This document shows, in pieces, positions 8,065 through 20,042 of a DNA stretch of 64,000 nt. Both the position numbers and the translations under genes were made by a program. The DNA is taken from NCBI GenBank assembly GCA_018609195.1, contig JAHCSE010000018.1, positions 4,750-68,749 of the forward strand. Reading direction: 5' to 3'. The notes beneath the pieces are model-generated. The model searched no databases, had not been told where the DNA came from, and saw only the letters and a list, made by a program, of their open reading frames with translations. How positions within the stretch are numbered: position 1 is the first letter of the stretch; the number at the start of each line of letters is the position of its first letter. This DNA comes from Patescibacteria group bacterium (lineage in GTDB: Bacteria > Patescibacteriota > Minisyncoccia > Minisyncoccales > RBG-13-36-15).

Positions 8065-9024
8065 ATGATTGAAAGTAAAAAAGGACCATCAGAAGTTAGG
8101 GAAGTAAGTGCGGTTCCATTTATGGTAATTTTAATAGTATTAGGTTTTTTGTTAGCAGCTTTGGTCTTAATATTGCTATTCGTGTTTACTCCAGCCGATA
8201 GACAGGTATTATTATCCAGCCCGAAAAACCTGACTCATGATGGATTGGAACGAACCTACAGAATATATGATCCTGAAAGTGGCGGGAAGAAATCATTAAT
8301 CATTGGGCTTCATGCTCTAGGAGGAAGCAGCCGACGTTTTTCCTACTACACTGGACTTCACAATGTCACCGACGAAAATACAATCGTAGTCTATCCTGAC
8401 GCCGTTCCATCAAATAAGAAAGGGTTGCAAGCAGGTTGGAACTCGACTTACTGCTGTGGAACTGGACTTGAGAACAATATTGATGATGCTGGATTCATTC
8501 TGGCTCTTATAGAGAGGCTTGTTCAGGATTACGATATAGATCAGTCAAAAATTTTTATAACAGGATTTTCTAACGGTGCAACAATGTCTCAATATCTAGC
8601 TACTGAGCAGCCGGACAAATTTGCTGGAGTAGCTGCTATATCTGGATCAGTAGGAGTCGAAAAAAAGGTATTAAAACCATCGACTGCAATTCCAATATTA
8701 CTAGCCCATGGCATGAGGGATGCCAGTATTCCATTCAAGGGCGGAGTCGCGGGTGATGATGGTTTCTTTAATTGGTTAGATTTCGGCACCACCGTAAATA
8801 CTTGGAAAAATGTAAACGGCTGCAGCCAAGAAACTAAGATCATAGAACAGTCTAATACTCGTGAGATTATCGACTATGAAGGATGTGATGCCTTGGTTCG
8901 CAGCGTTATTTATCCAAACCTAGGCCATCAGTGGGATGACTGGCGCATTGGCCAGCTTTGGCGCAGAACACCAAGAGGTTCGAAATTAGTGGTCTCGTTT
9001 TTTGAAGACATTTCTAATAATTAG
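8065..9024 (+). CDS. secreted alpha/beta esterase, PHB-depolymerase (LpqC-like) family
   Basis: TM/signal anchor; GLHALGGSS oxyanion region; GFSNGA (GxSxG) nucleophile elbow. Confidence 0.65.
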   Translation: MIESKKGPSEVREVSAVPFMVILIVLGFLLAALVLILLFVFTPADRQVLLSSPKNLTHDGLERTYRIYDPESGGKKSLIIGLHALGGSSRRFSYYTGLHNVTDENTIVVYPDAVPSNKKGLQAGWNSTYCCGTGLENNIDDAGFILALIERLVQDYDIDQSKIFITGFSNGATMSQYLATEQPDKFAGVAAISGSVGVEKKVLKPSTAIPILLAHGMRDASIPFKGGVAGDDGFFNWLDFGTTVNTWKNVNGCSQETKIIEQSNTREIIDYEGCDALVRSVIYPNLGHQWDDWRIGQLWRRTPRGSKLVVSFFEDISNN

Positions 9025-9182: not shown

Positions 9183-10532
9183 TTGAAGCAAATGAATATG
9201 ATTGCAAGGAACTCTAAAAGAAAACTTCTATTTATATCAAAAGAAAATCTAAGTGGCGATCTTGCATGGCAACTAAAACGCAACGGTCATGAGGTAAAAG
9301 CTTATATTGAAACAAAGGAGGATGTCGATGTTTATACTGGCTTCATTGAGAGAATAAAATCATGGAAACCTTATAAAAATTGGGCCGATGTCATAATATT
9401 TGATGATGTGGGCTTTGGAGAGATCGCTGATAGCCTTCGTAAACAAGGCAAGCTAGTAATAGGAGGTAGTAAATATACTGACAGATTAGAAAAAGATCGT
9501 AAGTTTGGTCAATTAGAACTCAAAAAATATGGGATAAACATACTGCCAAGTTGGCAGTTCTCTGATTATGATAAAGCCATGTGCTTTATTCGTAAAAATC
9601 CCATGCCCTATATATTCAAGCCAAGTAGTAATAGATTACAGGATGGTGAAAATAAAGAATACGAAAAAGATTTAATTGTTTTGGGAGAAGAAAAAAACGG
9701 CAAAGATCTTCTTGAATTTCTTGAACAAAACAAGATTATTTTACAAAAAAAATGTCCAACTTTTTTAATCCAGAAATTCGTAAGAGGAGTTGAAGTTGCA
9801 GTTGGGGCATTTTTCAACGGAAAAGAGTTTATTTACCCCATCAATATTAATTTTGAACACAAGAGATTTTTCCCCGGCAATATCGGTCCCTTTACGGGTG
9901 AAATGGGAACACTTATGTACTGGAGTTCATCGAATACTTTATTCCGTGCAACACTTAAACGTATGCTGCCCGCACTTAAGGAATCTGGTTATATAGGTTA
10001 TATCGATATTAATTGTATTGTGAATAATGAGGGAATATATCCACTTGAATTTACTTCTCGATTTGGATATCCCACAATTCAAATTCAACTTGAGGGGATA
10101 ACCACACCAACAGCAGAATGGTTATATCGCTTAGCGAGGGGAGAAAAATTTCAGATTCAGACAAAACGAGGTTTTCAGGTCGGTGTAGTAATTTTAGTGC
10201 CTTCATATTTCTCGTATTTTTTTGGAGGAAACAATCGAGAACTTATCAAAACATATAAAAATTTAACAATTATTTTTAAAAATTCATCTAATTTAGGAGG
10301 TGTTCATATTGGGGACGTGAAAAAAGATAAACAAGATGTTTGGCGTATTGCCGGAGGATCAGGTTGGCTTCTTGTTGTGACTGGAAGCGGTGTTACTGTA
10401 AAAAAAGCAAGACAGAAAACCCACAAACTAATAAGGGATATTAAAATTCCACATATGTTTTATCGTACTGATATAGGTAAAAATTGGAGAGTGGATAGTA
10501 AAAAACTTCGCACCTGGGGTTATATTAATTAA
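9183..10532 (+). CDS. ATP-grasp enzyme, phosphoribosylamine-glycine ligase (PurD)-like
   Basis: FEHKRFFPGNIGPFTGEMGT resembles the PurD (N)EHKR..GP.TGGMG motif within an ATP-grasp layout. Start codon uncertain. Confidence 0.55.
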   Translation: MKQMNMIARNSKRKLLFISKENLSGDLAWQLKRNGHEVKAYIETKEDVDVYTGFIERIKSWKPYKNWADVIIFDDVGFGEIADSLRKQGKLVIGGSKYTDRLEKDRKFGQLELKKYGINILPSWQFSDYDKAMCFIRKNPMPYIFKPSSNRLQDGENKEYEKDLIVLGEEKNGKDLLEFLEQNKIILQKKCPTFLIQKFVRGVEVAVGAFFNGKEFIYPININFEHKRFFPGNIGPFTGEMGTLMYWSSSNTLFRATLKRMLPALKESGYIGYIDINCIVNNEGIYPLEFTSRFGYPTIQIQLEGITTPTAEWLYRLARGEKFQIQTKRGFQVGVVILVPSYFSYFFGGNNRELIKTYKNLTIIFKNSSNLGGVHIGDVKKDKQDVWRIAGGSGWLLVVTGSGVTVKKARQKTHKLIRDIKIPHMFYRTDIGKNWRVDSKKLRTWGYIN

Positions 10533-10590
10533 ATTGTAGGTTTAATTAACTAAAAAATATCGCACAAGCTAAAAAATAACTTATCAAATA

Positions 10591-10637
10591 GTGTACCCTA
10601 TAAGGTACACTATAGGGTACACCATAGAGTACCCTAT
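10591..10637. promoter_or_regulatory. cluster of interlocking palindromes/direct repeats (GTGTACC/GGTACAC, GTACCCTATA/TATAGGGTAC)
   Basis: gtgtaccctataaggtacactatagggtacaccatagagtaccctat, about 135 nt upstream of the excisionase-family HTH gene. Confidence 0.45.
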
Positions 10638-10665
10638 TTCGTGGAATAAAAAAATGCCCATCGCT

Positions 10666-10714
10666 GGGACGTAAAGTCCCCGTGGGGACCACGTCCCTTT
10701 ACGGGGCGTTTTTT
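10666..10714 (+). terminator. GC-rich hairpin(s) with T-run; two mutually exclusive pairings are possible
   Basis: GGGACGTaaaGTCCCCgtGGGGACcACGTCCC versus CCCCGT..ACGGGG + cgtttttt. Confidence 0.5.
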
Positions 10715-10717
10715 ATT

Positions 10718-10765
10718 CTGTCAAAAATTGCCAAAATTGACAGAGAAAAGATGAAAAGTTAAAAT
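10718..10765 (+). promoter_or_regulatory. promoter with palindrome over -35
   Basis: CTGTCAA..TTGACAG inverted repeat; TTGACA (10737-10742), 17 nt, TAAAAT (10760-10765). Confidence 0.5.
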
Positions 10766-10772
10766 AAAACAT

Positions 10773-10964
10773 ATGGATAAACTCTTAACCATAAAAGAAG
10801 TTGCCAAATATTTAAGAGTCAGCGAGCGTTCAGTCAACCGTTATATTGAATCTGGCCGGCTTAAAGCCTCCAAAATCGGCCAATGGAGAATCAAACAAAG
10901 CGATTTAGAAAAATTTTTAAAAGAAAACTCAAATGACAAAAGAAGGTTTAAGAAAAAGCTATAA
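10773..10964 (+). CDS. excisionase-family helix-turn-helix DNA-binding protein
   Basis: LTIKEVAKYLRVSERSVNRYIESGRLKASKIG matches the excisionase/MerR-like HTH pattern. Confidence 0.7.
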   Translation: MDKLLTIKEVAKYLRVSERSVNRYIESGRLKASKIGQWRIKQSDLEKFLKENSNDKRRFKKKL

Positions 10965-11631
10965 GATAAAAGATTTACCTAAAGTTGAAAGGCCGAGAGA
11001 GAAATTGATTTCAAAAGGCGCCCAAAACCTAAAAGATGAAGAACTTTTAGCTATTTTACTCCGGACCGGCAGGGAAGGTAAGAATGTTTTAGATTTGGCA
11101 AAACAAATTTTAAATAAATTTTCTAAAAAGAGGTTCTTTAAAATGAAATATGAAGATTTAATAAAGATTGATGGAATAGACCAATCTAAGGCTTGTACAA
11201 TTTTAGCCTCTCAGGAATTGATCCAAAGAGCGTTAAAGGTTAGAGACGAAAGTTTACCTCAAATCAAATCGATTCAAGATGTTTTAGCTCAAGCGGTTTA
11301 TATGAGAGATAAAACTCGTGAGCATTTAATGGCAATTTATCTTAATGCCAGAAATGAGATGGTTTACAAAAAGCCAATGTTTGTTGGCACACTTAATGCT
11401 AATCTTGTTCATCCTCGGGAAATTTTTAATGAAGCTCTGAAACAAAATGCAGCTTCAGTCATTCTAGTCCACAACCATCCTTCTGGAAATCCCGAACCTT
11501 CAGAAGACGATTTAGAAATTACCAAAAGGCTAATTGAAGCTGGTAAAATAATGGGCATTGATGTTTTAGACCACATAATTATTGCCAAAAACAAACCTCC
11601 TTTTAGTTTCAAAGAGAAAAAATTGATTTAA
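10933..11631 (+). CDS. radC: RadC-like JAB/MPN domain protein
   Basis: ERPREKL, ELLAILLRTG and HNHPSGNPEPSEDD (JAMM motif). Confidence 0.85.
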   Translation: MTKEGLRKSYKIKDLPKVERPREKLISKGAQNLKDEELLAILLRTGREGKNVLDLAKQILNKFSKKRFFKMKYEDLIKIDGIDQSKACTILASQELIQRALKVRDESLPQIKSIQDVLAQAVYMRDKTREHLMAIYLNARNEMVYKKPMFVGTLNANLVHPREIFNEALKQNAASVILVHNHPSGNPEPSEDDLEITKRLIEAGKIMGIDVLDHIIIAKNKPPFSFKEKKLI

Positions 11632-11635
11632 AATT

Positions 11636-13345
11636 ATGGCAAAGACTAATAAAAAATCAGAGGTTGAAAAATTGAAAGGCGAAGTTGATCGCCTGAAAAA
11701 GGAATTGAAGAAAAGGAAGAAATACGGCTTGGTTTGGGAAGAAAAACCTGAAGAAGTGGTTGAGATGTGCAAAGAAAAACTGCCAGTGCTAAAAGAAGTA
11801 AAAAATAAAGAAATAATCACCGACAAAGACAAGCCGGTAAATTTACTGATTGAAGGCGACAATTATCACGCCCTTTCAGTTTTGAATTATACCCACGCAA
11901 AAAAAGTTGATGTCATTTACATTGATCCACCGTATAACACCGGTAAGCCAAAGGAATTTAAATATAACGATAAGTGGGTAGATCTTAATGATGGGTATAG
12001 ACATAGTAAGTGGGTTGCTTTTATGGAAAAAAGGATGAAGCTGGCTAAAAATTTACTTAAAGATACTGGACTTATTTTTATTTCTATCGATGATAATGAG
12101 TTGGCCCAGTTGAAGTTGTTGATGGACAGACAGCCAGAATTATTTGGAGAAAATAATAAAATAGGAATTTTTACGATAGAGACTCCGAATCAAACCTCCG
12201 ATGTTAATAAAATAAAGAACTCCGATTTCTTATTAGTATATGGGAAAACATCACAAGCGGCGTTTAAGTTGTTATTTAAAAAACAGGTTGCGAGGTGTAC
12301 TACAGGAAAGGAGAACCAAACACAACCAATTATAGAATTCCCCAAGGGGTTAAAAGTGGTTGGTGTGTCAGATGGGATATATAAAGATACGAGAAAAACA
12401 AATGGTATGGAAGATATTTTTTTAATAAAAGGACCAATAATCGTAAGAAACGGGAAACTGGTTCAATCTATCAGATTAAAAGCCAGATGGGCCAATCCAA
12501 ATGATATGAAACGATTTATAAATAAATTTATCAGCAAAAGCAAGCATCCAATATTTAATAAATTTGGCAAAGAACTTTTAGATCTATATCTGCTAGGCGA
12601 TCGTTTTCAGCCACAAATGGTAAAGCGTGGCTTTGATATACCCCATACAATCTTGTTAGGATTTACTCAAAAAGGAGGAGATTTATTAAAAAATATTTTA
12701 CACAAAGAAACATTACAATATCCCAAGCACCCATCATTTATAAAATATTTATTAAGCATTTCAATAGACAAAAACTCCATCGTGTTAGATTTTATGGCTG
12801 GCTCTGGCACTACTGGCCATGCGGTTTTGGAACTTAATAAAGAAGATGATGGCAATCGCCAATTTATTCTTTGTACCAATAACGAAAACAATATTTGTAC
12901 CGATGTTTGTTATCCAAGGATTAAAAAAGTTATTAGAGGATACAAAAATTCGAAAGGGGAAAAGGTGGAAGGATTAGGCGGTAACCTAAAATATTTCAAA
13001 ACTAATTTTGTCGATGCTGAACCGACCGATAAAAATAAAATTAAACTTACACAGCAAGCTACGGAGATGCTTTGTATTAGAGAAGAAACTTTTGAAAAAG
13101 TTTTAGACAAAAAGGATTTTAAAATTTTCAAAAATAATAATCATTATACCGGCATAATTTTTGACCAATTAGCAATCCCAGGATTTAAAAAGACAATTAA
13201 AAACATCAAGGGTAAGTTTAGCGTCTATGTTTTTTCGCTAAGCGACGAAACTTTTGACGAAGAATTCGCTGATATTAAACAAAAAGTAAAATTATCTCCT
13301 ATACCAGAAGCGATTTTAAGGGTGTATAGGAGAATATTTAGATAG
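11636..13345 (+). CDS. mod: Type III-like (beta-class) N6-adenine/N4-cytosine DNA methyltransferase (Mod)
   Basis: DVIYIDPPYNTG (motif IV) precedes VLDFMAGSGTTGHA (motif I). Gene is 4 nt after radC and 4 nt before the next gene. Confidence 0.85.
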   Translation: MAKTNKKSEVEKLKGEVDRLKKELKKRKKYGLVWEEKPEEVVEMCKEKLPVLKEVKNKEIITDKDKPVNLLIEGDNYHALSVLNYTHAKKVDVIYIDPPYNTGKPKEFKYNDKWVDLNDGYRHSKWVAFMEKRMKLAKNLLKDTGLIFISIDDNELAQLKLLMDRQPELFGENNKIGIFTIETPNQTSDVNKIKNSDFLLVYGKTSQAAFKLLFKKQVARCTTGKENQTQPIIEFPKGLKVVGVSDGIYKDTRKTNGMEDIFLIKGPIIVRNGKLVQSIRLKARWANPNDMKRFINKFISKSKHPIFNKFGKELLDLYLLGDRFQPQMVKRGFDIPHTILLGFTQKGGDLLKNILHKETLQYPKHPSFIKYLLSISIDKNSIVLDFMAGSGTTGHAVLELNKEDDGNRQFILCTNNENNICTDVCYPRIKKVIRGYKNSKGEKVEGLGGNLKYFKTNFVDAEPTDKNKIKLTQQATEMLCIREETFEKVLDKKDFKIFKNNNHYTGIIFDQLAIPGFKKTIKNIKGKFSVYVFSLSDETFDEEFADIKQKVKLSPIPEAILRVYRRIFR

Positions 13346-13349
13346 AAAT

Positions 13350-16109
13350 ATGGCTAATCAAAGTCTATACCAAAGAGGATCGAAATGGAGAAAATGGGAT
13401 TTACAAATCCATTGCCCTGATGATGTTCTCAATAATCAGTTTAATGGTAAGACTTCCGATGAGAAATGGGAGAGTTATATTGCGAAAATAGAAAGAACAG
13501 ATTTAGAAGGTGTGGGGTTAACCAATTATTTTTGTATAAATGGGTACGAAAAAATTTTGAGTTATAAAAAGAAGGGTAGATTGGATAAGATAAAAATTAT
13601 TTTGTCAAATATAGAATTTCGGTTATCGCAGCCGAATCGTAGTGGAGAATACATAAATTTACATGTTATTTTTTCTGACTCGGTAAGTATAAAGAAAATT
13701 AAAGATTTTCTTGCTAGGCTTCCTATCATTGGCACGGATTCTAAAAATAGAAGTCTATTCTGTACAGAAAATGATTTACAGCAAATTGGTTATGATAAGG
13801 CACTAGTTGAATTTAGTGAATTACGAAAAAAATTAAAAGAAAACTTTGTTCATAGAAAAGATTATCTTATTGCTGGAGTTTCAAGAGGTTATGGTTCTTT
13901 TAGACCTTCACCGAATGAAGGTAGGGGAGCATCGTTAGCAATCGAAATTGATAAAATATCCGATTTCTTTTTTGGGAAAATAGAAGATGTTAACTTTTTT
14001 TTAGGTATTGGAAGATATAAAAATGCAAAGCCAAAACCAGTTGTACGAGTTTCTGATGCTCATAGACTAGAAAAGATTGGCTCTGAATTTTCTTGGATTA
14101 AAGCTGACCCCACTTTTGAAGGATTGAAACAAATAATTTACGAACCGGAATTAAGAACTTCTTTAGGAGAAAGACCAGAGCTTTACTTATATCCACAAAT
14201 TATTTCGGTTCAATTGAAAGGGGTCGAAAGATACCAAGGCCAACAGGACATCGAAGATTTCCCGCCTATAAATCTCGGAAAACAAATTTTTTTCAGCTCC
14301 AATTTAACAAATATTGTTGGTCCTCGGGCTTCTGGAAAAACTGTTCTTGTAGAATTACTTAATTATCCATTTAATCAACATCAAAAAGAGGCTAAAAAAG
14401 ATGAGAAATTACCTTTAATTCGCTTCTTATCAAAGAGATTCCCGGGTTTAACTGTTGAGATTTTATATCAGCAAGGAGAAAAAGAAATAGATGGAATAAA
14501 GAGAAAGATTGTTGATTTATTAGACCCGTTTTATACACCGCCTTTAACTATGGAATATTGGTCGCAAGGACAAATAGAGCAAGTGGCTAATAAAAAAGAG
14601 AAGTTAGATGAGTACATAAGAAATAGGTTAGAATCAACTCTTCTTTCGAACCTTTCTCTAAAAATTGATGAATTGAAAGAAAATCTAAAAAAATTGCGTG
14701 AAAAATATCTCCGTAAATTCGAGGTAGAGATTGAACAAAAGAAGCTTTTAGCAGAGAAAAAGCAAATTGAAGAATATTTTGAAAAACTAAAAACCAAAGA
14801 GTACAAAGATTTAATCAAGAAAATCAGAGAAAATAGGACAAACAGCCAACTTTTAGATACATTTATCGAAAATATTCAAACAATAATTAAATTTTTAGAA
14901 GAAGCCAATAAACAGTTTAGTTTTATAAGTCTTCCTGATAAGGGTGAACTTTTAAAATTATTTCCCAAGAGCCCTTCAACATCTCAAGAGATTGAGAATT
15001 TTTATAAATTTATTAAGAGTGATTTTGCAACTATCATTAAAAGATTTCCAAGGCTTCAACAGAACATCAGTAGTTCGGAAGAAAGAAAAAGATTAGCAAA
15101 AGAAGCTACGCTACTTAAAAAAGAGTTCCTTGCTTATTGTAAAAAACACGGAGTCAAGATTACACAATTAGAATATGAGAAACGGACAAAAAGATTAGAC
15201 GCTGTAAATCGCCAGTTAAGAGTATTAGAAGCTAAATTAAAGGAGTACGAAGCAGCAAAAGAAACACATAGTCAGTTTGCACAACAGCTTAATAGAAAAT
15301 TAGCCAAATGGGAAGAAGAAAATAATCGGATACTTAAGAAATTTAACAAACTGTCCTCAAAGACCAATGTCAGAGTAGTTTGGGATAACCCCTTTAAAAG
15401 ACTACCGGAATGGATAAAAAAACAATTTTTAGCTAGTGATTCAGTAGCCAAACCACTAATAAGAAAATATTTTTATATTTTCTCTCCTGTTAAAGAAAAT
15501 TTTATTGAAGAAATTGTAAAAGAATTAGTAGAAAGTAAGAAGTACTCGATAGAAAAGATTATTGAAAATTTGAACAATAAAGAACGACCGGCATTAGTGA
15601 AAAGTGGTGGAAAACAGGAAAATTTAAAATGGTTTTTTCAACGAGATGAAACAGAAATTATGCGCAAGGATTTAATTATGAGACTTCAAGAATATGCCGA
15701 GAGAGGAATTAATCTTATTCAATATAAAGGGAAAATTCTTGGTAAAGACAGCATGTCCTTCGGTGAACGCTGTGGTACTCTTATTGAACTTATTTTACAA
15801 TCAGGAGACCACCCACTTATTATTGATCAGCCTGAGGAACATCTTGACTCAAAGTTTATTGCAGACCGAGTTGTGAATATTATTAGAGGGCAAAAAATAA
15901 AGCGCCAAATAATCATATGTACACATAATGCAAATATTGTAGTATTGGGCGATTCAGAATTAGTTACAGTACTTTCTGCGGATAGACAGGGTACAGATGC
16001 CTATCAAGGTTCTTTGGAAAATTCAAAGCTTAGAAAGCAAATTTATGATGTTTTAGAAGGTGGTCCCGAGGCATTTAAGAAAAGAGAACAAAAATATGGT
16101 TTTAAATAA
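13350..16109 (+). CDS. PHP phosphoesterase domain fused to Rad50/SbcC-like coiled-coil ABC ATPase
   Basis: N-terminus has WDLQIHCPDD, NLHVIF and VSDAHRLE (PHP His/Asp motifs). Walker A GPRASGKT starts at aa 324. A long K/E-rich coiled-coil follows, then signature-like SFGERCG, Walker B LIIDQPEEHLD (D826) and H-loop CTHNANI. Confidence 0.75.
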   Translation: MANQSLYQRGSKWRKWDLQIHCPDDVLNNQFNGKTSDEKWESYIAKIERTDLEGVGLTNYFCINGYEKILSYKKKGRLDKIKIILSNIEFRLSQPNRSGEYINLHVIFSDSVSIKKIKDFLARLPIIGTDSKNRSLFCTENDLQQIGYDKALVEFSELRKKLKENFVHRKDYLIAGVSRGYGSFRPSPNEGRGASLAIEIDKISDFFFGKIEDVNFFLGIGRYKNAKPKPVVRVSDAHRLEKIGSEFSWIKADPTFEGLKQIIYEPELRTSLGERPELYLYPQIISVQLKGVERYQGQQDIEDFPPINLGKQIFFSSNLTNIVGPRASGKTVLVELLNYPFNQHQKEAKKDEKLPLIRFLSKRFPGLTVEILYQQGEKEIDGIKRKIVDLLDPFYTPPLTMEYWSQGQIEQVANKKEKLDEYIRNRLESTLLSNLSLKIDELKENLKKLREKYLRKFEVEIEQKKLLAEKKQIEEYFEKLKTKEYKDLIKKIRENRTNSQLLDTFIENIQTIIKFLEEANKQFSFISLPDKGELLKLFPKSPSTSQEIENFYKFIKSDFATIIKRFPRLQQNISSSEERKRLAKEATLLKKEFLAYCKKHGVKITQLEYEKRTKRLDAVNRQLRVLEAKLKEYEAAKETHSQFAQQLNRKLAKWEEENNRILKKFNKLSSKTNVRVVWDNPFKRLPEWIKKQFLASDSVAKPLIRKYFYIFSPVKENFIEEIVKELVESKKYSIEKIIENLNNKERPALVKSGGKQENLKWFFQRDETEIMRKDLIMRLQEYAERGINLIQYKGKILGKDSMSFGERCGTLIELILQSGDHPLIIDQPEEHLDSKFIADRVVNIIRGQKIKRQIIICTHNANIVVLGDSELVTVLSADRQGTDAYQGSLENSKLRKQIYDVLEGGPEAFKKREQKYGFK

Positions 16110-16123
16110 TTTTTAAATCGTTT

Positions 16124-18352
16124 ATGCGACTAAAAATTTATCAAGAAAACGCAATAGAGGAATTATTAGAGAAAGCCAAGAAACTTTTAGGTTATTCTGG
16201 CGAGAAAAAGCTTGTTTTTAAGGCGCCGACAGGTTCAGGAAAAACAATAATGATGGCAGAATTTTTGAAACAACTGGTTGATGATAGAGAAATAAGGCAA
16301 AACCTTACTTTTATTTGGACGGCGCCAAGACAACTCCATATTCAAAGTAGAGCTAAGTTAGAAAATTATTTTGAAGAAAGCCGAGCGTTAAAATGCTCAT
16401 ATTTTGAGGATTTAGATGACAGGAAAATCGGCGAGAATGAAACTTTGTTTTTTAATTGGGAGAGCATAAACAGAGCTGATAATGTCTATATTCGCGATAA
16501 TGAGCAGGATTTTAATTTATCCAAAGTACTGGAAAGAACGAAAGAAGAGGGTAGAGAAATAATCTTGATTATTGATGAAGCCCATCATCACGCAACAAGC
16601 GAAATTTCTCAAGGATTGATTCAGATGATTGGACCAAAGTTGACGATTGATGTTTCCGCAACGCCGGCTATCATTGATCCTGACGCCGAAAAAGTAAATG
16701 TTCATTTGGAAGAAGTAAAAAGGGAAGGAATGATTAAAAAGGCAGTGGTCTTGAATGAAGAGTTTGTCAATCTTTTGAAAAGAGGAAAGATCGAATCTGA
16801 TTTAAGTGGCAGTAGTGAAGAATTGGTTATTGATGCGGCATTGAAAAAACAAAAAGGATTATTAAAAGCATTTCAAAAAGAGAAGGCAAAAATTAATCCA
16901 TTAATTTTGATTCAACTTCCAGACAGGATTGGACAGCTTGAAGATATAATGAAAGATAGGGTGATTAGAATTTTAAAAGATAAATATAAAATCTCAATCG
17001 AAAATGGCAAGTTAGCAATTTGGCTTTCAGGAGAACATATTAATAAAGAAGATGTTGAGAAAAATGACAGCGAAGTAGAGGTTTTAATTTTCAAGCAGGC
17101 GATTGCTTTAGGTTGGGATTGCCCTCGCGCGCAGATTTTAGTTTTGTTTAGACAATGGCACAGCCCAATATTTTCTATTCAAACAGTGGGTAGAATTATG
17201 AGAATGCCGGAACCAATAAAAGGACATTATGAAAATGATATTTTGAACTACAGCTATGTATATACCAACTTGAGCGATATAGAAATTAAAGAAGATATTG
17301 CTCGCGATTATATTACTATTTACACAAGCAAGAGACGACCTGATTATAAGCCAATAAATTTACTATCTTGTTATTCAAAACGATATCGTGAGAAAACAAG
17401 ATTATCGCCGCTTTTTATAGAGTTGTTTTTGAAGGAGACGAAAAGTTATGGGCTAAAAAAGAAAATAGATACGAAGGCGAAGAAATTGAATATAAAGGTT
17501 TTTAATGATTGGAAAGCTGAAAATATTGATTTATTAGCGGGGAAAACAATCGCTGGCGATAAAGCAATTAAAGTAAGTGGGTTTGATCTACAGAGATTGT
17601 TTGATTTTTTTGTAAGAAATAGTTTGAGAGAGGGCTCTGTTTCATTTTATCCAGAAGACAGGTCGGTTGGTCGTGTTAAAGAAGCAATTTATAAATTTTT
17701 TGAAACAGAATTCAAAATGAAGCGAGGCGAGGGAGAAGATGAGACCGCTCAGATTGTTTTAAGCGATAAAAATATTCAACAATTTGTTAATGTAATTGAT
17801 AAGACTAAAGAAGAATATCAGAAGGAAGTAGTTAAACGCGAACCAGAAATTATTCCTCTTGAAAATTGGGACATGCCAGAATCTTTAACTTTTGGTAGTG
17901 ATTATAAAAAAGAGGAGAGAAAAAAGAGTGTAATGCAGCCGTTTTACAGTGATAATAGATGGAAAACAGAAAAAGTATTCATTGAGTTTTTGGAAAAATC
18001 AGAGAATATTGAATGGTGGTTTAAAAATGGGGATCGAGACAAAATATTTTTCGCTGTGTCATATGATAATGGCGAGCAAAAACCTTTTTACGTTGATTTT
18101 ATCGTTAAGATAAAAGACGGAAGGATTGGCTTATTTGATACCAAGACGGGAATTACATTGCGAGATGCTAAACCGAAAATTGATGGTTTGTATAAGTATA
18201 TTCGAACGCAAAACAAAAAAGGCAAAAAACTTTTTGGTGGCATAGTTACTAACACTGACCAAAGAAATTATCGCGGAAGATGGATTTATTTTGATAAAAA
18301 TTCTAAAGAATTAAGAAACAATTTCAGTAACTGGCAAATTTTAGAATTATAA
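16124..18352 (+). CDS. res: Type III restriction enzyme Res-like helicase-nuclease
   Basis: FKAPTGSGKT (motif I) and IIDEAHH (motif II). C-terminal FYVDFIV..GLFDTKTG is PD-(D/E)XK-like. Confidence 0.8.
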   Translation: MRLKIYQENAIEELLEKAKKLLGYSGEKKLVFKAPTGSGKTIMMAEFLKQLVDDREIRQNLTFIWTAPRQLHIQSRAKLENYFEESRALKCSYFEDLDDRKIGENETLFFNWESINRADNVYIRDNEQDFNLSKVLERTKEEGREIILIIDEAHHHATSEISQGLIQMIGPKLTIDVSATPAIIDPDAEKVNVHLEEVKREGMIKKAVVLNEEFVNLLKRGKIESDLSGSSEELVIDAALKKQKGLLKAFQKEKAKINPLILIQLPDRIGQLEDIMKDRVIRILKDKYKISIENGKLAIWLSGEHINKEDVEKNDSEVEVLIFKQAIALGWDCPRAQILVLFRQWHSPIFSIQTVGRIMRMPEPIKGHYENDILNYSYVYTNLSDIEIKEDIARDYITIYTSKRRPDYKPINLLSCYSKRYREKTRLSPLFIELFLKETKSYGLKKKIDTKAKKLNIKVFNDWKAENIDLLAGKTIAGDKAIKVSGFDLQRLFDFFVRNSLREGSVSFYPEDRSVGRVKEAIYKFFETEFKMKRGEGEDETAQIVLSDKNIQQFVNVIDKTKEEYQKEVVKREPEIIPLENWDMPESLTFGSDYKKEERKKSVMQPFYSDNRWKTEKVFIEFLEKSENIEWWFKNGDRDKIFFAVSYDNGEQKPFYVDFIVKIKDGRIGLFDTKTGITLRDAKPKIDGLYKYIRTQNKKGKKLFGGIVTNTDQRNYRGRWIYFDKNSKELRNNFSNWQILEL

Positions 18353-18453: not shown

Positions 18454-18888
18454 ATGGCAAAATCAAATCACAATGCCAAGGGATGGCCTCGAGATAGCTA
18501 CACCGGCCCCGGCGGCGGACTATATACCGACCCAGGGGGAGGGCTTTATACCGGTCCTGGCGGCGGAGCGTATACTGGACCCGGCGGCGGTCTTTACACA
18601 GGGCCTGGAGGAGGTTTGTACACTGGGCCAGGTGGCGGATTATATACCGGACCGGGTGGTGGCCTCTACACTGGCCCCGGTGGTGGATTATCTACGGGTC
18701 CGGGAGGAAGTCTTTATACAGGCCCAGGTGGAGGGCTGTACACTGGACCCGGTGGGGGTCTTTATACTGGACCATGCGAAGAACCTTACTATAGCAATTG
18801 GCCGCCTAGGGAAGTTTTTCTCAAACACTTAAAGGAGCTTGGTATGGATGATATATACCAGCTTCTCAAAGATAGTTGGGGTTTATAA
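18454..18888 (+). CDS. Gly/Tyr-rich octapeptide-repeat protein with small alpha-helical C-terminal domain
   Basis: 15-aa head, 11.5 x (Y-T-G-P-G-G-G-L), 37-aa tail CEEPYYSNWPPREVFLKHLKELGMDDIYQLLKDSWGL. The repeat peptide is conserved only in this frame. Confidence 0.6.
   Translation: MAKSNHNAKGWPRDSYTGPGGGLYTDPGGGLYTGPGGGAYTGPGGGLYTGPGGGLYTGPGGGLYTGPGGGLYTGPGGGLSTGPGGSLYTGPGGGLYTGPGGGLYTGPCEEPYYSNWPPREVFLKHLKELGMDDIYQLLKDSWGL
18499..18774 (+). repeat. 11.5 tandem 24-nt repeats (coding)
   Basis: Units differ mostly at third codon positions (e.g. ggc/ggt/gga/ggg, ctt/ttg/tta/ctc/ctg). Confidence 0.9.
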
Positions 18889-19251: not shown

Positions 19252-19884
19252 ATGTTAGTTTTTATTGACGAGTCTGGAGATCCAGGATTAAAAATAGAAA
19301 AAGGATCTAGTCGATATTTCACGGTATCGTTGGTTATATTTGAGGAGAGAGATGAGGCCTTGGCTTGCGATCAGAGAATCAATCTTTTGAGAAAAGAATT
19401 AGGCTGGGAGCCAAATAGCGAATTCCATTTTAAAAGAAACTCCGATAAGGTAAGGCGGGCTTTTTTACAGGCGGTGGCTCCATATAATTTTTTCTATTAT
19501 GGAATTGTTATTAATAAAGACCCCAAAAAGCTTTGGGGTGAGGGTTTTAGAGATAAAAAATCTTTTTATAAATATACTTGTGGTTTAGTATTTGAAAATG
19601 CAAAAGAGAAGTTAGAAAGCGCAATCATCATAATTGATAAAAGCGGAAATTTAGATTTTAGAAGACAGTTGGCAAAATATTTACGAAAGAGAATGAATGA
19701 AAGAGATAAGAAATTAATTAGAAAAGTAAAAATGCAACGATCGAGTGGGAATAATTTATTGCAGTTAGCGGATTATGTTGCGGGTGTGATAAATAGATCT
19801 ATCCAAAAAGGGAAGAAATATGCAGAGGAATACAGAAAAATCATAGCGCATAGAGAAATTTATGTTCAAATTTGGCCAAAATAA
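19252..19884 (+). CDS. DUF3800 domain protein
   Basis: MLVFIDESGDPG N-terminus and C-terminal LLQLADYVAG, typical of DUF3800. Confidence 0.8.
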   Translation: MLVFIDESGDPGLKIEKGSSRYFTVSLVIFEERDEALACDQRINLLRKELGWEPNSEFHFKRNSDKVRRAFLQAVAPYNFFYYGIVINKDPKKLWGEGFRDKKSFYKYTCGLVFENAKEKLESAIIIIDKSGNLDFRRQLAKYLRKRMNERDKKLIRKVKMQRSSGNNLLQLADYVAGVINRSIQKGKKYAEEYRKIIAHREIYVQIWPK

Positions 19885-20042
19885 GAACCTTGCCTTCGGC
19901 AGAACCTTGATTCCTTTGGAATTAAGAACCTCACCTTCGATGAGAACCTTGTTTTCTTGTTTCACTCGAAAATAAAACTTCCGAGCCTATCCCTTTCGGG
20001 AACGCGGCGATAAACGCCACAGTTCAGCTCGGAAGCAATTCC
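19885..20042 (-). ncRNA. candidate structured sRNA convergent on DUF3800 (three-way junction + AGGTTCT/hairpin repeats)
   Basis: Minus-strand TTGACA (20078-20073), 18 nt, TAATAT (20054-20049). Then CUUCCGAGC..GCUCGGAAG closes two hairpins (GUGGCG/CGCCGC, UCCC-GAAA-GGGA) followed by UUUUAUUUU. After that come 4 x AGGUUCU separated by small hairpins. Confidence 0.4.

Follow-up and report, generated by a model that had tools for sequence, protein, structure and literature searches.

We analysed a 64,000-nucleotide (nt) stretch of DNA (the window) from a Patescibacteria group bacterium (assembly GCA_018609195.1, contig JAHCSE010000018.1) and found that an operon of five co-directional genes at 10773–18352, coding for a small helix-turn-helix (HTH) protein, a RadC protein, a DNA methyltransferase (Mod), a 919-amino-acid (aa) protein of the TrlF family, and a helicase (Res), belongs to a mosaic type of cassette that is widespread and ordered small HTH-RadC-Mod-cargo-Res. 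In the reading that we prefer, with a probability of about 0.6, TrlF occupies a cargo slot of this Type III-like restriction-modification (R-M) cassette, where it would act autonomously as a second, co-expressed layer of defence, and cargo is exchanged by recombination. What the data show directly are the gene content of the operon, the family memberships of its proteins, the conserved flanks of the mod–res slot, the diversity of the cargo in that slot, and the chimerism of TrlF. The open reading frame (ORF) map of the window returned the five tightly packed genes at exactly the positions given by the original prediction, which had been made from the DNA sequence alone:

10773–10964, + strand: HTH gene, 63 aa, the first gene of the operon
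10933–11631, + strand: RadC gene, overlapping the HTH gene by 32 nt
11636–13345, + strand: Mod gene, 4 nt after the RadC gene
13350–16109, + strand: TrlF gene, 919 aa, 2.76 kb, 4 nt after mod
13350–14234, + strand: PHP domain of TrlF, from an AlphaFold 2 (AF2) model and Foldseek
14235–16109, + strand: SMC/Rad50-like ABC ATPase part of TrlF, from motifs and the AF2 model
16124–18352, + strand: Res gene, 742 aa, 14 nt after the TrlF gene

All five domain assignments made in that prediction were confirmed by profile searches, by reading of motifs and, for the 919-aa protein, by AF2 models. Its view of the mod/res pair as Type III-like was also borne out, with a beta-class Mod and the helicase motifs of Res both seen. 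The identical locus is present in two independent assemblies (JGI 3300010931 and Logan SRR12068623), and the operon is thus not an assembly artefact; the 919-aa protein is on record from a contig of up to 750 kb. The G+C content of the island is 0.31–0.34, slightly below that of its flanks. Its neighbours on both sides are housekeeping genes, and no integrase or tRNA was seen near the island.

The slot between mod and res was studied in ten distinct cassettes, that of the window included, whose Res proteins are 62–81% identical to the Res of the window. The gene orders were as follows, with the identity to the window's Res given for each relative:

Window: HTH_17-RadC-Mod-TrlF-Res
L087, Res 70%: 80-aa ORF-Mod-TrlF-Res
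L166, Res 81%: AbiEii, Mod-M78 peptidase-DUF4411-Res
L168, Res 76%: HTH_3-RadC-Mod-M78-DUF4411-Res
L167, Res 75%: Mod-171-aa protein-Res
L171–176, Res 74%: HTH_3-RadC-Mod-OLD-Res
L177/178, Res 80%: RadC-Mod-CD-NTase-Cap15-Res
L179–182, Res 75%: RadC-NYN-Mod-OLD-Res-Mrr
L183, Res 75%: HTH_3-RadC-Mod-split homologue of the 171-aa protein-DUF3800-Res
L169, Res 63%: HTH-Mod-Res, the mod stop codon overlapping the res ATG

As can be seen, the slot is occupied in nine of the ten cassettes. It holds TrlF in two, an M78 peptidase resembling that of RosmerTA together with DUF4411 in two, an OLD nuclease in two, a gene pair of a cyclic-oligonucleotide-based antiphage signalling system (CBASS) in one, the 171-aa protein in one, and the 171-aa protein with a DUF3800 protein in one; the remaining slot is empty. 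PADLOC profiles matched the cargo proteins as Old (E = 8.9e-58), Cyclase (2.2e-112), 2TM effector (1.3e-78), and RmrA of RosmerTA (1.8e-22). The flanks of the slot are constant. In each of the ten cassettes, mod ends in a conserved stretch of ~25 nt, GGTGTATAGGAGRATWTTTAGRTAR, which includes an AGGAG ribosome-binding site that serves whichever gene comes next. The start of res, ATGC[AG]ACTAAAA, is also conserved in 10/10. Between the conserved mod end and the res start the sequences are unrelated, unless the cargo is shared. The window and L087 have a near-identical TrlF/res junction, though their Res proteins are only 70% identical. Other cargo is found in L166 (81%) and L177 (80%), whereas the more distant L087 (70%) has TrlF in common with the window; cargo therefore does not follow the Res tree.

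Several individual cassettes deserve a separate description. In L177 (5564–6998, GCA_023659895.1) and in L178, a complete two-gene CBASS (a CD-NTase and a Cap15-type 2TM effector) lies exactly between mod and res. The 171-aa protein, which has no family match, recurs as cargo, intact in L167 (6481–6996) and split into 114 and 50 aa in L183 (4644–5143); judged by its embedding, it is a candidate new defence gene. In L179, an NYN-domain gene is located between RadC and mod (1863–2567), and a Mrr-type Type IV nuclease gene (8337–8858) directly follows res. Given these two genes, the mod–res junction may not be the sole insertion point.

The identity of the cargo in the window is well defined. The 919-aa protein belongs to the TrlF family, with a score of 464.5 bits against NF045780 (cut-off, 350 bits) and residues 9–917 aligned to model positions 1–944. 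The full-length AF2 model had a predicted local distance difference test (pLDDT) score of 88.9, and structure matching of this model showed that the ATPase part resembles the heads, with coiled coil, of JetC, Smc, MukB, Rad50, LmuB, and AriA. The sequence profile of TrlF also finds Rad50 and SMC; among solved structures, it finds only generic SMC/Rad50/ABC heads, and no structure of Ppl (a PHP-ATPase defence protein considered below) or of TrlF was found there by sequence search. The ATPase motifs are complete (Walker A GPRASGKT, Q-loop, signature SFGER, Walker B IIDQPE, and H-loop), and the ATPase head is split by a mainly helical coiled-coil insert of ~350 aa. A separate model of residues 1–295 (pLDDT 90.5) gave, as its 25 best Foldseek matches in the PDB, PHP proteins only, including TM0559 (7.6e-7), the PHP domain of Pol III alpha, and RNase AM. 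A Mre11-type nuclease was considered and rejected, since the N-terminal fold is PHP and not the calcineurin-like fold of Mre11. SbcCD and Mre11-Rad50 likewise combine a coiled-coil ABC ATPase with a phosphoesterase, a likeness that is an analogy only, whereas TrlF of the window is a single chain with a PHP fold and a much shorter coiled coil. The original prediction had described a single-chain SbcCD-like protein; the PHP domain and the coiled-coil ATPase were borne out, but the protein is not a new single-chain SbcCD, being a member of a named family.

The metal-ligand set of the PHP domain is incomplete. In an alignment of 126 distinct N-termini, TrlF of the window has Q19 where 104/126 family members have H, and N59 where 111/126 have D, while H21, E89, H105, D236, and H238 are retained at PHP ligand positions. 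Pfam PF02811 is recorded for many TrlF homologues; the TrlF of the window falls short of it. The same Q19/N59 variant is kept by a clade of full-length proteins (P0002–P0005, L083). With all ABC motifs intact, we read the substitutions as placing nuclease activity in doubt rather than as a sign of decay. They also weaken the idea of a second cleavage activity, which the original prediction had suggested for this protein.

Comparison of the two parts of the protein revealed different histories. Residues 296–919 and the corresponding part of TrlF in L087 share 87–91% identity. For the PHP domain, the figure is only 32% against L087 but 69% against the L083 type, which implies a domain swap (the regions compared were 13350–14234 in the window, 1952–2836 in L087, and 6617–7500 in L083). 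Judged by these identities, TrlF of the window is a chimera with a swapped PHP domain.

TrlF was named from the temperature restriction locus trlR-trlF-trlG of Photorhabdus laumondii, in which trlR is a small regulator, trlF a “histidinol phosphatase”, and trlG an AlbA_2 + HATPase_c_4 protein (PMC7554251). Growth at 36 °C is arrested by the trl operon, and no mutations mapped to trlF (PMC7554251). The Photorhabdus operon and that of the window are alike in coding for a PHP + ABC ATPase protein and in being headed by a small HTH gene. They differ in that the Photorhabdus TrlF is partnered by TrlG, whereas in the window there is no TrlG, TrlF is located between mod and res, and the Q19/N59 substitutions are present. 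The same domain logic is found in Ppl, a single-gene anti-phage PHP + ATPase protein from the P2-like prophage hotspots of E. coli. Ppl is described as a 3'-5' exonuclease of single-stranded DNA (ssDNA) that is inhibited by nucleoside triphosphates (NTPs), senses 3'-OH ends, and is activated upon nucleotide depletion (review PMC12904381). TrlF of the window matched Ppl in part (PADLOC Ppl, 1.5e-27; NF042955, 110.7 bits) and, in difference to it, lacks two PHP ligands. A true Ppl orthologue was rejected, as the 110.7 bits were obtained in two stretches, the better of which covers aa 431–912 only, against an equivalog cut-off of 1000. As far as can be judged from these matches, TrlF is a distant relative of Ppl.

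To place the operon among other TrlF loci, Mod and Res near TrlF were detected by iterated hidden Markov models (HMMs) on 165 loci; BLAST with the window's own Mod and Res had missed divergent neighbours (the Res of L083 was undetected). The TrlF family comprises >1300 database clusters and 1114 plasmid records, mostly enterobacterial conjugative plasmids. Mod-TrlF-Res sandwiches were found in L083 (P0005), L086 (P0033), L087, L102, L111, and L150. The three genes follow the same order in L106, L108/L109, and L142, with 0.6–2 kb between TrlF and Res; other orders were Mod-Res-TrlF (L004, L046, L064, and L078) and TrlF-Mod...Res (L029). In P0028, TrlF is located 3' of a Type II Tsp45I/MTase pair. 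TrlF homologues thus do adjoin mod/res elsewhere, in six sandwiches and in other orders, which is the opposite of the missing linkage that the original prediction had named as its refutation. At the same time, a Type III-like Mod or Res lies within 5 kb of TrlF in 12/80 species loci and in none of the other 68, and TrlF is a solitary gene on plasmids of E. coli and Pantoea. The commonest same-strand Pfam partner of distant TrlFs is AlbA_2/HATPase_c_4 (TrlG-like); next in frequency are R-M genes (Types I, IIL, III, and IV) and Type II enzymes that occur alone. In one sandwich (L086, 5872–7998), Mod is fused to a GIY-YIG nuclease domain.

Payne et al. 2024 (bioRxiv 10.1101/2024.01.29.577857) documented embedded defences (“guilt-by-embedding”) for Hma, BREX, DISARM, and Type I R-M, and TgvAB in the Type I R-M system of V. 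cholerae is an experimental example (PMC11411939). In such cases, which include BrxU in BREX and PrrC in EcoprrI, co-oriented defence genes are nested in an R-M-like host, and the cargo is diverse, with many ABC ATPases, OLD/TOPRIM proteins, and nucleases. The same pattern is observed here: the TrlF gene has the orientation of its host genes and lies between them, its homologues occur outside such hosts, and other cargo is found at the same place. The published hosts are Hma, BREX, DISARM, and Type I systems, whereas here a mod/res pair of Type III-like character acts as host, with one precise slot and a conserved RadC gene upstream. We found no literature on embedding in Type III systems, on a RadC-Mod-X-Res cassette, or on a link between RadC and Type III systems, in a search outside which most subscription-journal papers fell. 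The TrlF family and the principle of embedding are already known. No signatures of Hma, BREX, or DISARM were listed for the five proteins at PADLOC E <= 0.01 (for Mod, the best 25 of 27 matches, all MTase). A MADS system (mad1–mad8) was also rejected: the HTH protein matches mad1 (5.4e-12) and TrlF weakly matches mad8 (3.7e-5, through a generic ABC N-terminus), but Mod, Res, and RadC had no mad matches.

Mod contains an N6_N4_Mtase domain and matches PADLOC MTase_III at 4.7e-84. Its DPPY motif (aa 97–100, 11924–11935) precedes FMAGSGTT (aa 386–393, 12791–12814; FxAGSGTT), which is the beta-class order. The identities of Mod across cassettes vary in blocks, a pattern consistent with exchange of target recognition domains. 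Res is a superfamily 2 (SF2) helicase (ResIII PF04851, 8.6e-22) with the motifs GSGKT (16232–16246), DEAHH (16574–16588), SAT, and QxxGR. Close to its C-terminus, the motif FYVDFIV...FDTKTG (aa 655–676; YVDFIV at 18089–18106, FDTKTG at 18134–18151) can be aligned with the nuclease motif YxPDF...E(T/S)K, which is present in the longer Type III Res proteins beside other TrlF genes, and the C-terminus also partially matches that of the BPTD_3080 restriction endonuclease family (8.5e-9). No Pfam match to aa 401–742 was found even at E <= 5, RE_endonuc PF19778 included, and by sequence Res matched no solved structure, EcoP15I Res included. The canonical Type III enzymes EcoP15I and EcoP1I are similar in that mod lies 5' of res, Mod is of the beta class, and Res is an SF2 protein; the C-terminal D...(D/E)xK motif of canonical Res has a putative counterpart in the window. 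In contrast to the operon described here, canonical Res is ~850–1000 aa long (742 aa in the window), its motif reads P-D (V-D in the window), and mod directly precedes res, with no 2.76-kb gene between them. Conservation within the Res family is unusually high: among 7576 matches to the window's Res, the 120 listed are 74–83% identical to it and span several phyla, including Omnitrophota, Nitrospira, and Paceibacterota. A search of viral contigs returned two loci only, and a search of plasmids only distant matches to the helicase domain.

The HTH protein is an HTH_17 protein (3.9e-19) of the excisionase family (TIGR01764, 5.9e-13); at its position, related cassettes carry an unrelated XRE-type HTH protein of 68–70 aa, so that the leading HTH proteins come from two unrelated families. 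RadC is full-length, with a UPF0758 helix-hairpin-helix N-domain and a JAB domain (240 bits against NF000642, cut-off 180 bits), and its JAMM motif, HNHPSGNPEPSEDD, is intact at aa 180–193. A RadC gene is located 5' of mod in 6/10 related cassettes. Of four RadC/mod junctions read as DNA, three (window, L171, and L177) have an identical, conserved 4-nt spacer. The RadC sequences fall into three groups that do not follow Res. When RadC was compared by thirds, the JAB core was conserved in every pair, so the thirds are uninformative on resident versus mobile origin. In L171 (11364–16226), mreB, mreC, a PBP2-like gene, and rodA are found a few kb 3' of the RadC-Mod-OLD-Res cassette. Synteny of radC with mreBCD is common in many bacteria, and in this neighbourhood the R-M module may have landed beside a resident radC. 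The recurrent RadC–mod junction provides a concrete genetic setting in which to study RadC.

According to the reading that we prefer, all five genes would be transcribed from a promoter at 10737–10765 under control of the HTH protein. Mod would methylate an asymmetric site, and Mod and Res together would cut unmethylated DNA, as Type III enzymes do. TrlF would be expressed along with the R-M genes but form a second layer of its own; on the analogy of Ppl, it may be regulated by ATP and engage DNA ends or ssDNA. Cassettes would swap cargo through recombination within the two conserved flanks, at the 3' end of mod and at the 5' end of res. Several points weigh against this reading. The sample of cassettes is small (n = 10) and opportunistic rather than systematically drawn. 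Mod-TrlF-Res sandwiches turn up repeatedly although their Mod, TrlF, and Res proteins are very divergent, which is more than random cargo predicts. Given H19Q, D59N, and the missing PF02811 match, nuclease activity, and hence a Ppl-like mechanism, is uncertain. Finally, Q19, which takes the place of the first His of the PHP HxH motif, is present in 5/7 sandwiched TrlFs versus 12/115 others (Fisher p = 5e-4, not corrected for phylogeny); the N-terminal regions of the sandwiched TrlFs are mutually only 21–61% identical, and the enrichment hints at a specialisation to life within an R-M operon. It is the recurrence of the sandwiches and the pattern of PHP ligands that keep alive the ideas of TrlF as a subunit, as a guardian, or as a passenger, which are considered below.

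TrlF could be a physical partner in an integrated three-component enzyme, its SMC-like ATPase sensing or clamping DNA and then licensing Res or adding a nuclease. The 4–14 nt gaps suggest translational coupling, the Mod-TrlF-Res order recurs across divergent Type III families, and the loss of PHP ligands, enriched in sandwiched TrlFs, fits a non-catalytic partner that relies on the nuclease of Res. We nevertheless consider such an enzyme unlikely, since close relatives of Res (70–81% identical) adjoin unrelated cargo and another (63%) none, complete known systems such as CBASS and OLD are among the cargoes, mod and res are absent from the neighbourhood of most TrlF genes, and TrlF of the window took a foreign PHP domain while Mod and Res remained unchanged. 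The composite system of the original prediction fares accordingly: its linkage to mod/res stands, but for a slot that holds unrelated modules or nothing there are simpler explanations than an extra activity integrated into the enzyme. Improbable, too, is a role of TrlF as a guardian of the R-M system, inactive while the Type III enzyme works and unleashed by an anti-restriction protein or by collapse of the nucleotide pool, in the manner of PrrC/EcoprrI or PARIS. Such a role would agree with R-M systems of several types being the most frequent class of TrlF neighbours after TrlG, with the precedent of PrrC, an R-M-embedded ABC-ATPase effector triggered by inhibition of R-M (PMC12707154), and with the reported inhibition of Ppl by NTPs and its activation upon nucleotide depletion (PMC12904381). 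However, the CBASS, OLD, and RosmerTA-like cargoes have sensors of their own and are not known as R-M guardians, and stand-alone TrlF genes are common.

That TrlF of the window is a non-functional, decaying passenger with a degenerate PHP site appears very improbable. The two substitutions at highly conserved positions and an N-terminal domain that falls short of the Pfam PHP model are what such a remnant would show, but the 919-aa ORF is intact, all ABC motifs and the five other PHP ligand residues are conserved, the full-length proteins of one clade have retained the Q19/N59 variant, and the AF2 model is confident. A further proposal, which we regard as doubtful, is that RadC-Mod-X-Res is a dedicated, recombination-driven carrier of cargo in which RadC is a working part, and that Q19/N59 TrlFs are Type III-dependent SMC-like sensors or guardians that use the nuclease of Res and are not autonomous exonucleases. 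If this is true, RadC, an enigmatic and near-universal JAB protein, would for the first time have a defined functional context.

Returning to a Type III-like cassette that carries TrlF as an autonomous second layer, we note that, if the slot is general, Type III-like mod/res pairs would join Hma, BREX, DISARM, and Type I R-M as embedding hosts. Searches of metagenomes for new anti-phage genes could be anchored on the conserved ends of mod (3') and res (5'); immediate candidates are the 171-aa protein and the DUF3800 cargo. The data suggest a route by which cargo is swapped, through recombination in the conserved flanks combined with domain swapping inside the cargo. For annotation, the large ATPase is best described as a candidate defence protein of the TrlF family that is embedded in an R-M operon, and not as a new R-M subunit.

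The upstream ATP-grasp gene ends at 10532, and the region between it and the operon contains the following elements:

10588–10637, no strand assigned: four head-to-tail 12-nt units, consensus ATAGGGTACACT, each near-palindromic about GTAC
10643–10719, + strand: strong hairpin with A-run and T-run flanks, -39.7 kcal/mol, z = -5.86
10712–10724 and 10737–10749, no strand assigned: inverted repeat TTTATTCTGTCAA / TTGACAGAGAAAA, 13-nt arms, 12-nt spacer
10737–10765, + strand: promoter-like site TTGACA-17-TAAAAT, 11/12 matches

The hairpin looks like a bidirectional intrinsic terminator that would end the ATP-grasp gene and insulate the operon. The original prediction had proposed that dense palindromes and a promoter overlapped by a palindrome serve autoregulation. 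Both features exist, but the dense palindromes are located 5' of the terminator and are thus unlikely to be the operator; for the same reason of position, the 12-nt repeats, which have no second copy as an array within the window, probably do not control the operon. The inverted repeat is a plausible candidate operator for the HTH protein; its right arm includes the -35 hexamer. The -10 element ends 7 nt 5' of the ATG of the HTH gene at 10773, before which no Shine-Dalgarno sequence is visible, and from this spacing the operon transcript may be leaderless. Leaderless, HTH-autoregulated transcripts are known from genes for R-M controller proteins, and a similar arrangement is plausible here by analogy. 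The upstream regions of L168, L171, and L177 have no motif in common with that of the window.

Other features were observed 3' of the operon. A putative 144-aa ORF at 18454–18888 (+ strand) consists of ~8.5 copies of a 24-nt unit encoding GPGGGLYT and coincides with a G+C peak of 0.42. It had no Pfam, PADLOC, or NCBIfam match, its exact protein was absent from a collection of 15 billion sequences, and an ORF in another frame overlaps it, so coding is unproven. The DUF3800 gene at 19252–19884 (+ strand) codes for a protein that matches PADLOC candidate PDC-M04A (7.2e-9), and a distant homologue of this protein (24% identity) is among the mod–res cargo of L183. Just 3' of the gene, on the opposite strand (19973–20036), is an Rfam DUF3800-IX RNA motif (58.3 bits, gathering score 36.8). 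At the scale of the whole window, cumulative GC skew has its minimum near 4 kb and its maximum near 41 kb, where the AT skew changes sign too.

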